Origin: Escherichia coli
GTDB lineage: Bacteria > Pseudomonadota > Gammaproteobacteria > Enterobacterales > Enterobacteriaceae
NCBI RefSeq assembly: GCF_017348835.2
Contig: NZ_CP072312.1
Length of the DNA: 64,000 nucleotides
Direction: 5' to 3' (one strand)
A program made the position numbers. How positions within the stretch are numbered: the first letter of the stretch is position 1; each line of letters begins with the position of its first letter. This document shows, one piece after another, positions 31,001 to 37,000 of this stretch.

Positions 31001-34000
31001 GAGGCTGGTGAATATTTCAGCCAGTATTTCAGCCTTAAACTGTTGCTTATCTCGCTGGTATATACTGCGGTGTCCGTTTTTCTGTGGACACGTCTGCGTC
31101 CTGTATATATTCCTTTGCCATGGCGGAGAATTGTCTCTTTCCTGCTGCTTTATGCTCTGCTTCTGCATCCGGTTGTTCTGAAATCGTTAATCAGACAGGA
31201 GCCGCTGAATGATACTCTAGGCAAACTGGCATCCCGAATGGAGCCTGCTGCCCCCTGGCAGTTTGTATCCAGTTATTATCAGTACCATCAGCAACTGAAT
31301 GCACTGACAACCTTCCTGAATGAAAATAGCGCACTGCCACCACTGGGTAATCTCAGGGATGAATCAGGGGAGAGACCACGCACACTGGTCCTGGTGATTG
31401 GTGAGTCGACACAGCGCGAACGCATGAGCTTATACGGGTATCTACGTGAAACGACGCCGGAGCTGGATGCACTGCGTAAAACCGATCCGGGTCTTACTGT
31501 GTTTAATAATGTGGTGGCATCGCGTCCGTACACCATTGAAGCATTGCAACAGGCCCTTACTTTCGCCAACGAAAAGAATCCTGATCTGTATCTGACGCAG
31601 CCGTCGCTGATGAACATGATGAAGCAGGCAGGCTATAAAACATTCTGGATTACCAACCAGCAGACAATCACAGCCCGTAACACCATGCTCACTGTATTTT
31701 CGCGCCAGACGGACAGGCAGTACTACATGAATCAGCAGCGAACACAAAGTGCGCGTGAATATGACACTAACGTGCTGAAGCCGTTCCGGGAAGTGCTGAA
31801 TGACCCTGCACCAAAGAAACTGATCATCGTGCATCTGCTGGGTACGCACATTAAGTATAAATACCGTTATCCGGAAGGTCAGGGGCGGTTTGATGGCATT
31901 ACAGGGCATATTCCCACTGGATTAAATGCGAAAGAGCTGGAAGTGTATAACGATTACGATAATGCCAATCTGTTTAACGATCATGTGGTGGCCAGTCTGA
32001 TAAAGGACTTCAGAGCAACTGCGCCGGACGGCTTTCTGCTTTATTTTTCAGATCATGGTGAAGAAGTATATGATACTCCGCCATATAAAACGCAGGGACG
32101 GAATGAAGATAACCCCACACGTCCCATGTACACTGTTCCGTTCCTGCTGTGGACCTCGGAAAAGTGGCATGCTGCACATCCGCGAGATTTTTCGCAGTAT
32201 GTTGACCGCAAATACAGTCTGGCTGAACTGATCCACACCTGGTCAGATTTGGCGGGACTGACATACGATGGTTACGATCCGACCCGTTCTCTGGTGAATC
32301 CGCAATTCAGGGAAACCCCCCGCTGGATTGGAAATCCGTATAAAAAGAATGGGCTCACTGATTTCGACACTCTTCCGTATGGTGAGCCATAGTATTTTCT
32401 TATCTTCGGTTCCGTTCTGAAGGCAGGAGGATGTGTTTTCCTCTGCTGTCCGGTGGCCTCCAGGGATGGTACCACCTTCTGCTGTCCGGTGGCCTCCAGG
32501 GATGGTACCACCTTCTGCTGTACTCTGTTATCATAATGAGATAAGCAGGCAGATACCGGTAAATATGAAAAATATCAGAACTGAGTTTATTCCCCGCTTT
32601 AACCTTACATTATGCTTCCCCCGTTACTGGATGACGTGGACAGGTATCGGTATTATCTGTGTGTTTGCAATGGTCCCCCCCGCACTGAGAGATCCATTGT
32701 TGGGAAAATTGGGCATGCTGGTTGGGCGTCTGGGGAAAAGCGCACATCAACGGGCCTTGATTAATTTATCGCTTTGTTTTCCGGAGTACAGTGATAAAGA
32801 AAAGGAGAATATCGTTGATGCCATGTTTGCAACAGCCTCCATGGCCGTTGTGCTTATGGCTGAATTAGCACTGTCCGGGCCTGATAAAATTTCGCATCGT
32901 ATACGCTGGAATGGTCTGGAGATTGTGGAGAAGATGGCACAGAACAATGAAAAGGTCATTTTTCTTGTGCCACATGCCTGGGGAGTGGATATTCCCGCAA
33001 TGCTGATGGCTGCGTCGGGCAGAAAAATGGCAGCGATGTTTCATAACCAGAGAAATCCGGTGGTGGATTATGTCTGGAACAGTGTTCGTCGTCGTTTCGG
33101 AGGAAAACTGCACGCACGTAATGACGGTATTGCCTCCTTTGTCCGCTCAGTCCGGCAGGGATACTGGGGATATTATCTTCCTGATCAGGATCATGGCCCG
33201 GAATTCAGTGAGTTTGCAGATTTTTTTGCGACGTATAAAGCAACTTTACCGGTTATCGGACGGCTCAGCAGGATCAGTGGTGCACGGATAATACCGCTTT
33301 TCCCTGTTTATGACGGAAAGACCCATCATCTGACTATTCATGTCAGCCCGCCACTTGCTATACGACAGAAGAGTGATGCTCATATTGCGCGACAGATAAA
33401 CGAAGTGGTTGAAAATTTCGTTCGTCCACATCCTGAGCAGTATACGTGGATCCTCAAGTTGCTGAAAACGCGTAAAGAAGGGGAAGAGGATCCTTACTGA
33501 GGCAGGTTTTTCAGGATAATGAGCTTACCCAGCAATAGTGGACACACGCTAAGTGAGTAAACTCTCAGTCAGAGGTGGCTCATATGACAAAAGTAAGCGT
33601 ACAGCCTGAACCGTCTGGTCAGAATCTGACGAATTAGACAAAGTGGTGTCCACCAAATAAGTAGTGGGAACCAAAGTATCAGATATGCAGAAAAATGTGA
33701 CTCCCGGCAGGCGAAAAGGCTGCCCTAATTATCCTCCCGAATTTAAACAGCAGCTCGTTGCTGCCTCCTGTGAACCCGGGATATCCATCTCAAAACTTGC
33801 TCTTGAAAATGGCATTAACACCAATCTGTTGTTCAAATGGCGACAACAATGGCGCGAGGGAAAGCTGCTATTACCTTCTTCAGAGAGCCCCCAGCTACTT
33901 CCTGTGACTCTCGATGCAGCTGCCGAACAGCCAGAATCGCTCTGAACCGCCCCGGGTTTCCTGGAGAGTATTTTATCTGTGAACTCAGGCTGCCAGATCA

Positions 34001-37000
34001 TTATTTCCGATGGAAGCATAATAAGCTTTTTCTGCTTCTGCCGGAGGAATATGGCCCAGCCTTTCCAGCAATCGTCGATTGTTATACCAGTCCACCCACG
34101 TGAGTGTGGCCAGTTCCACTTCTGCACGGTTTTTCCAGCTCTTACGGTGTATTACCTCCGCTTTGTAAAGACCATTGATGCTCTCCGCCATCGCGTTGTC
34201 ATACGAGTAACCTGTACTCCCTGTTGATGCCAGCAGTTTTGCTTCTTTTAGTCGCTCCGTATAGGCCAGTGATACATACTGAGAACCTTTATCACTGTGA
34301 TGGACTGTGCCGGACGGCCGACGGGCCCACAACGCCTGCTCCAGTGCATCCTGAACCGCCCCGGAAATCCTGGAGACTAAACTCCCTGAGAAAGAGGTAA
34401 ACAGGATGACTAAAAATACTCGTTTTTCCCCCGAAGTCCGTCAGCGGGCGATTCGTATGGTTCTGGAAAGTCAGGATGAATATGACTCACAGTGGGCGGC
34501 AATTTGTTCCATTGCCCCAAAGATTGGCTGTACGCCGGAGACTCTGCGTGTCTGGGTTCGCCAGCATGAGCGGGATACCGGGAGTGGTGATGGTGGACTC
34601 ACCACCGCTGAACGTCAGCGTCTGAAAGAGCTGGAACGTGAAAATCGTGAACTGCGCCGCAGTAACGATATCCTTCGCCAGGCTTCCGCTTATTTTGCGA
34701 AGGCGGAGTTCGACCGCCTCTGGAAAAAATAATGCCACTGCTGGATAAGCTGCGTGAGCAGTACGGGGTCGGACCGGTATGCAGCGAACTGCATATTGCC
34801 CCGTCAACGTATTACCATTGTCAGCAACAGCGACATCATCCGGATAAACGCAGTGCCCGTGCGCAGCACGATGACTGGCTGAAGAAAGAGATACAGCGCG
34901 TATACGATGAAAATCACCAGGTATACGGTGTGCGTAAAGTCTGGCGTCAGTTGTTACGGGAAGGTATCAGAGTGGCCAGATGCACTGTGGCACGTCTCAT
35001 GGCAGTTATGGGACTTGCCGGTGTTCTCCGGGGTAAAAAGGTCCGCACTACCGTCAGCCGGAAAGCCGTTGCCGCATGCGACCGCGTAAACCGTCAGTTC
35101 GTGGCAGAACGTCCAGACCAGTTGTGGGTGGCTGATTTTACCTGGGTAAGCACATGGCAGGGCTTCGTCTATGTGGCGTTCATCATTGATGTGTTCGCCG
35201 GATACATCGTGGGATGGCAGGTCTCATCATCCATGGAAACAACATTCGTGCTGGATGCACTGGAGCAGGCGTTGTGGGCCCGTCGGCCGTCCGGCACAAT
35301 CCATCACAGTGATAAAGGTTCTCAGTATGTATCGCTGGCCTACACGCAGCGGCTTAAGGAAGCCGGATTACTGGCATCAACAGGGAGTACTGGCGACTCG
35401 TATGACAACGCGATGGCGGAGAGCATCAATGGTCTTTACAAAGCGGAGGTAATACACCGTAAGAGCTGGAAAAACCGGACAGAAGTGGAACTGGCCACAC
35501 TAACGTGGGTGGACTGGTATAACAATCGACGATTGCTGGAAAGGCTGGGCCATATTCCTCCGGCAGAAGCAGAAAAAGCTTATTATGCTTCCATCGGAAA
35601 TAATGATCTGGCAGCCTGAGTTCACAGATAAAACACTCTCCAGGAAACCCGGGGCGGTTCATCCAGCACGAATGTCGTTTCCATGGACGATGAGACCCGC
35701 CACCCCACGATGTATCCGGCAAACACATCAATGATGAACGCCACATAGACGAAGCCCCGCCATGTGCTTACCCAGGTAAAATCAGCCACCCACAACTGGT
35801 CTGGACGTTCTGCCACGAACTGACGGTTTACGCGGTCGCATGCGGCAACGGCTTTCCGGCTGACGGTAGTGCGGACCTTTTTACCCCGGAGAACACCGGC
35901 AAGTCCCATAACTGCCATGAGGCGCGCCACTGTACATCTGGCCACTCTGATACCTTCCCGTAACAACTGACGCCAGACTTTACGCACACCGTATACCTGG
36001 TGATTTTCATCGTATACGCGCTGTATCTCTTTCTTCAGCCAGTCATCGTGCTGCGCACGGGCACTGCGTTTATCCGGATGATGTCGCTGTTGCTGACAAT
36101 GGTAATACGTTGACGGGGCAATATGCAGTTCGCTGCATACCGGTCCGCCCCCGTACTGCTCACGCAGCTTATCCAGCAGTGGCATTATTTTTTCCAGAGG
36201 CGGTCGAACTCCGCCTTCGCAAAATAAGCGGAAGCCTGGCGAAGGATATCGTTACTGCGGCGCAGTTCACGATTTTCACGTTCCAGCTCTTTCAGACGCT
36301 GACGTTCAGCGGTGGTGAGTCCACCATCACCACTCCCGGTATCCCGCTCATGCTGGCGAACCCAGACACGCAGAGTCTCCGGCGTACAGCCAATCTTTGG
36401 GGCAATGGAACAAATTGCCGCCCACTGTGAGTCATATTCATCCTGACTTTCCAGAACCATACGAATCGCCCGCTGACGGACTTCGGGGGAAAAACGAGTA
36501 TTTTTAGTCATCCTGTTTACCTCTTTCTCAGGGAGTTTAGTCTCCAGGATTTCCGGGGCGGTTCACAATGCTGAAAAACAAACATGCATAATAAGTCACA
36601 ATTATGAATTGTGATTTCTTCTATAAAAAAGAGACCACTGCAATATGTGATCTATTGTATTATTTCATAATTGTTAAAGCCACTTCACAGTATGCTCACA
36701 TTGTACGGATATATTCGTAATGTTTTTTATATCGAATGAACGACAGAAGTTGTGGAGATTTTATGAAAGTAATTAGCATGAAATTTATTTTTATTTTAAC
36801 GATTATTGCTCTTGCTGCTGTTTTTTTCTGGTCTGAAGATAAAGGTCCGGCATGCTATCAGGTCAGCGATGAACAGGCCAGAACGTTTGTAAAAAATGAT
36901 TACCTGCAAAGAATGAAACGCTGGGACAACGATGTTCAACTTCTTGGTACAGAAATCCCGAAAATTACATGGGAAAAGATTGAGAGAAGTTTAACAGATG

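Follow-up and report, generated by a model that had tools for sequence, protein, structure and literature searches.

Six IS629 copies with a mutual identity of 97.3–99.8% lie within the 64 kb of Escherichia coli DNA analyzed here (the window), and two of them, at 33943–36565, are interlocked: one copy sits inside the other, in the opposite orientation. IS629 is an insertion sequence within the IS3 family and has IS1203 and IS3411 as isoforms. The locus raises the question of whether one IS629 has truly transposed into another, or whether the arrangement was created by the assembly of near-identical repeats or imported by recombination from elsewhere. The nest is a genuine, strain-private transposition scar of a well-known kind and, as such, an ordinary event. 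It is carried on an ehx (enterohemolysin) virulence plasmid of the pO103/pF2_18C_FIB type, where an IS629 copy from elsewhere in the cell almost certainly transposed into a resident, oppositely oriented IS629. Here, we describe both partners and their junctions, trace the origin of the insert, and consider what the nest may mean for the plasmid.

The inner IS629 copy

The inner copy (34352–35661, plus strand) is a complete element of 1310 bp, starting with TGAACCGCCCCGGAAATCC and ending with GGGGCGGTTCA. It carries left and right terminal inverted repeats, which agree at 23 of their first 26 bases. Both this copy and the reconstituted host copy have the 1310-bp length and the terminal repeats expected of IS629 (~1.3 kb, TGAACCG start), and the motifs TGAACCGCCCCGG and CCGGGGCGGTTCA occur six times each in the window, all as ends of 1310-bp units. 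The inner orfA (34406–34732, plus strand) encodes a 108-aa protein with a Pfam HTH_Tnp_1 domain that is found in identical form on 483 contigs. The inner orfB (34732–35619, plus strand) encodes 295 aa from its ATG, with an HTH_21 domain and a complete rve core (Pfam), and its product, present on 454 contigs, has exactly the sequence of the 'IS629 transposase OrfB, O157:H7 str. Sakai'; OrfA likewise matches its Sakai counterpart exactly. The two reading frames overlap at GGAAAAAATAATG and stand in phases 0 and -1, as is usual for IS629, and frameshifting is predicted. The overlap is spanned by an ALIL frameshift-stimulating pseudoknot (34687–34803, plus strand; Rfam RF01497; the RF01497 scores are 120 and 116 bits, the former for the inner copy). 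With canonical OrfA and OrfB and its frameshift signal, the inner copy is intact. The IS629 of O157:H7 Sakai shares its 1310-bp length, terminal inverted repeats, orfA/orfB, predicted -1 frameshift, and ALIL pseudoknot; as an element, the inner copy does not differ from it and is unusual only in its target, which is another IS629.

The junctions and the target-site duplication

The host copy lies on the minus strand in two parts, as established by alignment. Its 3′ part (33943–34351, 409 bp) covers IS positions 1310 down to 902 and includes the right terminal inverted repeat, and its 5′ part (35665–36565) covers IS positions 901 down to 1 and includes the left one. The inner copy is flanked by ...CAGTGCATCC / IS / TCCAGCACGA..., with TCC perfectly repeated on both sides, at 34349–34351 (read by the host as GGA, at its IS positions 902–904) and at 35662–35664. 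When the second TCC is counted with the right-hand piece (then 904 bp, 35662–36565), the host pieces add up to 1313 bp (409 + 904), and removing one TCC restores 1310 bp (409 + 901). Aligned with four intact copies, the host halves abut at IS position 901/902 without a gap, overlap, or indel. A preliminary description of this DNA had proposed a nested insertion that split the host at 34351/35662 and duplicated TCC; taking out the insert and one TCC indeed leaves an uninterrupted host in register, and both the split point and the duplication are where that description placed them. IS629 generates duplications of 3–4 bp and has no sequence-specific target (PMC3271280), and the perfect TCC/TCC repeat agrees with that report. 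A 3-bp match by itself would occur at random with a probability of 1/64, yet a chance origin is untenable, because the 1310-bp element is exactly restored and relatives carry the uninterrupted site GCATCC|AGCACG.

Could reads from several IS629 copies have been mis-joined, so that the nest does not physically exist? Six such similar copies within 64 kb are hard for assemblers, the junction was found in this sequence alone, and the linkage of both junctions to this host copy is read from the assembled sequence. Collapse or copy-switching, however, joins homologous positions without creating a duplication, whereas here, on either side, an IS terminus meets an internal position to which it is unrelated (901/904), accompanied by the TCC duplication and by exact conservation of 1310 + 1310 bp. 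The variant alleles are also cleanly partitioned between the insert, which is of the common type throughout, and the two host halves, which are both of the variant type. Moreover, similar structures exist in several independent complete assemblies. Non-homologous joins flanked by a duplication make an assembly artefact very unlikely indeed, and a real insertion remains the preferred reading.

Consequences for the host copy

Inactivation of the host orfB, also proposed in the preliminary description, is borne out by the domain content of its remains. The truncated orfB (35622–36185, minus strand) departs from the host sequence past residue 175 and meets a stop after 12 codons of inner-IS sequence. 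Of the DDE triad, the 3′ fragment (33985–34332) retains the second Asp together with the Glu, and it matches rve positions 61–101, rve_3, and rve_2 in Pfam. The rve integrase core is therefore cut in two (profile positions 2–53 in the 5′ fragment and 61–101 in the 3′ fragment), with the break falling after the first catalytic Asp and before the second. Of the presumed D135/D194/E231 triad, the truncated product would keep Asp135 alone, and transposase production is presumably lost. Still, the host copy is not wholly dead: it keeps both terminal inverted repeats, an intact orfA (36185–36511, minus strand, from the ORF list), and an intact ALIL frameshift pseudoknot (36114–36230, minus strand; Rfam RF01497). 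Because both ends and orfA remain, the 2623-bp nest could be mobilised in trans. On its 3′ side, the host copy is abutted by a truncated IS66-family tnpA (accessory protein; 33664–33945, plus strand; ORF list; Pfam HTH_Tnp_1), whose stop codon comes from the first bases of the host IS629.

The donor and the plasmid setting

The preliminary description also stated that IS629 had transposed into itself. This is true at the family level but not for one and the same copy: 30 differences, lying on both sides of the junction, separate the inner copy from the host copy, which means that some other IS629 served as the donor. The nearest relative of the inner copy in the window is the IS629 at 45025–46334 (4 differences), the counterpart of which in pF2_18C_FIB differs from the inner copy at 2 positions. 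The variant type of the host does not represent the IS1203 isoform, as it shows 51 differences to an annotated IS1203 copy, against 53 for the inner copy. IS3-family elements move by copy-out-paste-in through a circle (bioRxiv 10.1101/2023.06.07.543989). Accordingly, an OrfAB fusion transposase arising through -1 frameshifting would generate a circular copy of the donor in which the two ends abut, and this circle would then be pasted into a staggered 3-bp cut, duplicating host positions 902–904. Given this mode of transposition in the IS3 family, the donor probably stays in place.

The target can be seen unoccupied in related plasmids. In the nearly identical plasmid pF2_18C_FIB (NZ_CP043544.1), which is otherwise 99.7–100% identical across the window, the host counterpart is uninterrupted (56363–57672), with the target GCATCC|AGCACG at 56771/56772 and no insert. 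Its flanks are identical to those here, where the host IS629 sits between the truncated IS66 tnpA and cmi-ehxDBAC, and an IS66-like TnpA is annotated at the matching place. The host 3′ side shows 99.9% identity to pF2_18C_FIB 54898–56771. Two pO103/pO45-type plasmids (NZ_CP031909.1 and NZ_CP101303.1) likewise have identical flanks, an unoccupied target, and no insert, although the IS629 at this site is of the common type in both (32 differences).

The reconstituted host differs from its pF2_18C_FIB counterpart at 6 of 1310 positions, and these private differences include a four-base patch with the allele of other IS629 copies, which makes the host a mosaic (converted patch at IS positions 632–644) and indicates that recombination or gene conversion also acted on it. 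Counted as three events, the six differences do not cluster significantly around the insertion site. Relative to pF2_18C_FIB, a 20.4-kb segment between two IS629 copies is inverted. Duplications are absent from the ends of the host copy (CTC/CAA) and from the window's four remaining IS629 copies, as expected at rearrangement joints; when the flanking triplets of these five copies were compared under simple inversion and recombination schemes, none paired.

The nest might have arisen in a different variant-type IS629 (a chromosomal one, or the copy at 25926–27235) and have reached this site later, with the homology of the host halves serving for homologous recombination or gene conversion. The mosaic host, the inversion through IS629, and the lack of duplications at all five other copies fit this scenario. 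Against it, the host halves equal the uninterrupted same-site copy of pF2_18C_FIB save for the six positions, and the window holds no second or donor nest. The scenario also needs an extra step, and it alters only the place of the insertion and not its nature. We regard such a move as very improbable, and favor direct insertion into the resident copy.

Nests of IS629 in other genomes

A 70-mer over the left junction matched none of 5,426 complete E. coli genomes and nothing in PLSDB. The truncated OrfB of 187 aa that spans the junction had no record among 153 billion gene positions, so the collections searched hold no second assembly in which this event was seen independently. Queries of 300 bp over the junctions gave two-piece matches only, each of which proved to be a different nest. 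Five further IS629-in-IS629 insertions with a perfect 3-bp duplication were found in other complete assemblies, with the duplicated triplets CCC (L003), TTC (L004), CGC (L007), ATT (L008), and CAG (L009). As in the present nest, they consist of a complete IS629 in an inverted IS629, and they reside on pOkiPb01711_1, the FWSEC0007 chromosome, the NCCP 13894 plasmid, pC1-057, and the PA11 plasmid, at host positions ~1031–1034, 755–758, 544–547, ~153–155, and ~300–302, compared with 902–904 here. Since host positions, triplets, and genomic sites all differ, these nests are independent events, and insertion of IS629 into IS629 is a recurring phenomenon. Two additional loci (L010 and L011) show exactly the arrangement expected from the recombinational flip of such a nest. 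In three pO157-type plasmids, the IS629 remnant by katP is joined to a complete IS629, each time at a different position, and two of these joins are clean insertions with duplications.

All nests found were inverted, which we do not take as an orientation bias: the queries combined a minus-strand host with a plus-strand insert and pieces were joined on one strand only, so that inverted nests near this element region were within reach and direct nests were undetectable. Insertion beside IR-like sequences is known for IS911; for IS629, targeting of IR-like sequences is not supported, as nest positions are scattered from ~150 to ~1030 in the host. The only hints of self-targeting are that the narrow query nevertheless brought up five other nests along with two flipped isomers, and that the katP-adjacent remnant has a complete IS629 joined to it at three positions.

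Possible roles of the nest

Other than the consequences outlined here, the nest reflects routine insertion-sequence biology. It is doubtful that IS629 inserts into resident IS629 copies above the expectation from their share of the genome (e.g. by local hopping on IS-dense plasmids), in which case self-disruption and flipping would curb the expansion of IS629 and promote plasmid isomerisation. As a recent, strain-private transposition on an EHEC/aEPEC-type virulence plasmid, the insertion may be useful as a marker for fine-scale typing. Together with the host halves, the inner copy makes up interlocked inverted repeats (901-bp arms separated by 412 bp, and 409-bp arms separated by 901 bp), which could presumably flip into isomers by homologous recombination and which may mislead assemblers. 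Finally, the inner copy is a direct repeat of the IS629 at 45025–46334, with cmi-ehxCABD lying between the two, and recombination between them could, in principle, lead to deletion of the enterohemolysin operon or to its excision in circular form.

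A complete IS629 nested in an opposed copy

Six IS629 units of 1310 bp were counted in the window by terminal-motif search and alignment, and TGAACCGCCCCGG and CCGGGGCGGTTCA, their terminal motifs, occur nowhere else than at the ends of such units. Four of these are intact (35-1344 and 4176-5485, both −; 25926-27235 and 45025-46334, both +). The remaining two form a 2623-bp nest, where a complete inner copy (the insert; 34352-35661, +), delimited by terminal motifs and a flank duplication, splits a host copy (−) into pieces at 33943-34351 and 35665-36565. Alignment with the four intact copies and the inner copy joins the host pieces at IS position 901/902 without gap or overlap, summing to 1310 bp. 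The insert is flanked by CAGTGCATCC on its left and TCCAGCACGA on its right, and the TCC at 34349-34351 recurs at 35662-35664. This duplication and the exact join therefore bear out the split at 34351/35662 and the TCC duplication reported in the preliminary description, together with its nesting of two opposed copies. Comparison of flanks revealed no target-site duplication at any of the five other IS629 copies in the window. Their flanking triplets do not pair with one another, and each of these copies lies at a rearrangement joint beside a truncated gene (traH, IS66 tnpA or traJ).

Origin by transposition

The window belongs to a pO103-type virulence plasmid that encodes enterohemolysin (ehxCABD). 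Its closest relative, pF2_18C_FIB (NZ_CP043544.1, 82,910 bp), was obtained from F2_18C, a porcine strain of atypical EPEC with sequence type ST302 (PMC6985150), and is 99.7-100% identical across the window. There, an uninterrupted IS629 at 56363-57672, with truncated IS66 tnpA and cmi on either side as in the window, presents the unoccupied target GCATCC/AGCACG, and the reconstituted host copy differs from it at 6 of 1310 positions. NZ_CP031909.1 and NZ_CP101303.1 (pO103/pO45-type plasmids) likewise carry an uninterrupted 1310-bp IS629 with flanks identical to those of the host copy, here of the common sequence type (32 differences). Transposition is classically proven when a site is occupied and flanked by a duplication in one replicon and empty in its sister, and the insert arose in this way. 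That the nest is an assembly artefact with no physical existence is hardly credible: collapse or copy-switching would link homologous positions, not an IS end to an internal position, and mis-assembly leaves two such joins, the duplication and the exact conservation of length unexplained. It is also very improbable that the nest was born in another variant-type IS629 copy and moved here by recombination; the plasmid does bear signs of IS629-mediated recombination, but this route needs one more step and leaves the identity of the structure unchanged. For transposition into the host copy, the integrated product, the 3-bp duplication and the empty site are directly visible. IS629 generates duplications of 3-4 bp and has no sequence-specific target (PMC3271280), and IS3-family elements transpose by copy-out-paste-in via a circle with abutted ends, leaving the donor in place (bioRxiv 10.1101/2023.06.07.543989).

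The exact junction had no match among 5,426 complete E. coli genomes or in PLSDB, and a protein record search returned no record of the junction-spanning truncated protein, so the event is private to its source. The nest is a new, strain-private case of a well-known kind of event.

Donor of the insert

The insert and host copy differ at 30 positions, distributed over both sides of the junction, and the alleles partition cleanly: the insert is common-type throughout, while both host halves are variant. The insert was therefore not copied from its host, so that the earlier phrase 'into itself' holds for the IS family and fails for the donor; in all other respects the nested finding is real, and its description and interpretation are right. 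Nearest to the insert is the counterpart of 45025-46334 in pF2_18C_FIB (2 differences), followed by the window copies 45025-46334 (4) and 4176-5485 (6); a chromosomal IS629 is a possible donor as well. The clean partition also indicates that insert and host have undergone no gene conversion with each other since transposition, which suggests a recent event.

At the host site, IS629 is common-type in the pO103/pO45-type plasmids (loci L001, 4348-5700, and L002, 4648-6000), and variant across IS positions 808-1043 in the window and pF2_18C_FIB; one lineage has therefore seen the resident copy converted or exchanged. Four clustered synonymous changes in the host copy (35915-35939; IS positions 632-644) are missing from the pF2_18C_FIB counterpart, and a 25-mer of this patch is also found in eight IS629 copies of other genomes, which points to gene conversion. 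The host copy also has two private non-synonymous changes, V to G and D to Y (positions 36140 and 34200).

Coding content and consequences

The inner copy encodes OrfA (108 aa; Pfam HTH_Tnp_1) and OrfB (295 aa; HTH_21 and a complete rve core, profile positions 2-101 of 102), overlapping at GGAAAAAATAATG, with an ALIL frameshift pseudoknot at 34687-34803 (Rfam RF01497, 120 bits). Each protein is letter-for-letter equal to proteins on >450 contigs, and a protein identical to OrfB is named IS629 OrfB of O157:H7 Sakai. With these features, the insert looks fully functional, its activity being judged from sequence.

The host copy keeps both terminal repeats, orfA (36185-36511) and its pseudoknot (36114-36230, 116 bits) intact. 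Its orfB, rightly described before as inactivated, is broken after residue 175, followed by 12 read-through codons of the insert, and the Pfam rve profile is split into positions 2-53 upstream and 61-101 downstream. Based on conserved IS3-family motifs and the Pfam alignment, the 5′ fragment would keep only Asp135 (WVADFT), with Asp194 (HSDKG) and Glu231 (AMAES) falling in the detached 3′ fragment. Transposase supply from the host copy is thus presumably lost, and the whole 2623-bp nest could be mobilised in trans. OrfA and a truncated OrfAB with the DNA-binding part are probably still encoded by the host; in IS911, comparable truncated proteins bind IS ends. Two interlocked pairs of inverted repeats, each shared by the insert and one of the host halves (34352-35252 with 35665-36565; 33943-34351 with 35253-35661), could flip by homologous recombination. 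With the copy at 45025-46334, the insert now makes a pair of direct repeats bracketing cmi-ehxCABD.

Recurrence in other replicons

Five further complete IS629 copies lie within oppositely oriented IS629, all with perfect 3-bp duplications: pOkiPb01711_1 (L003, CCC), the FWSEC0007 chromosome (L004, TTC), the NCCP 13894 plasmid (L007, CGC), pC1-057 (L008, ATT) and the PA11 plasmid (L009, CAG). This kind of event is not rare. All the nests recovered are inverted, which is a product of the query design, and a bias towards this orientation was rejected. Two other loci, L010 (1-254 +, 248-1310 −, then an intact + copy) and L011 (333-1310 −, 1-335 +, then an intact − copy), have exactly the piece order predicted for a nest flipped by recombination between the insert and a single host half. 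Both (L010 3002-5625; L011 2023-4645) read as 5′ fragment, inverted 3′ fragment and intact copy, with a 3-bp overlap.

At the espP-katP junction of three pO157-type plasmids (L007, L009 and L012), the same 5′-truncated IS629 remnant lies beside cytochrome b562/katP and carries a complete IS629 at three host positions (about 544-547, about 300-302 and about 937). The L007 and L009 joins are clean insertions with 3-bp duplications; the L012 join lacks a duplication, and here the left host part is gone along with some of espP. This remnant may be a locally favoured target.

Other rearrangements and repeats

Within 4176-27235, the 20.4-kb stcE-etp(T2SS)-repA-IS91 segment is inverted relative to pF2_18C_FIB and bounded by opposed IS629 copies (4176-5485 and 25926-27235), and so represents an IS629-mediated inversion. 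A 243-bp remnant at 10728-10970, 87-88% identical to the IS629 5′ end, belongs to a different IS3-family element; at the corresponding position, the pF2_18C_FIB annotation has a partial IS3 transposase. A perfect tandem repeat with a 36-bp unit (32442-32521; 2.2 copies, one more than in pF2_18C_FIB) precedes by ~44 bp the lpxM (msbB) start given in the pF2_18C_FIB annotation, and could influence lpxM expression or the annotated start.
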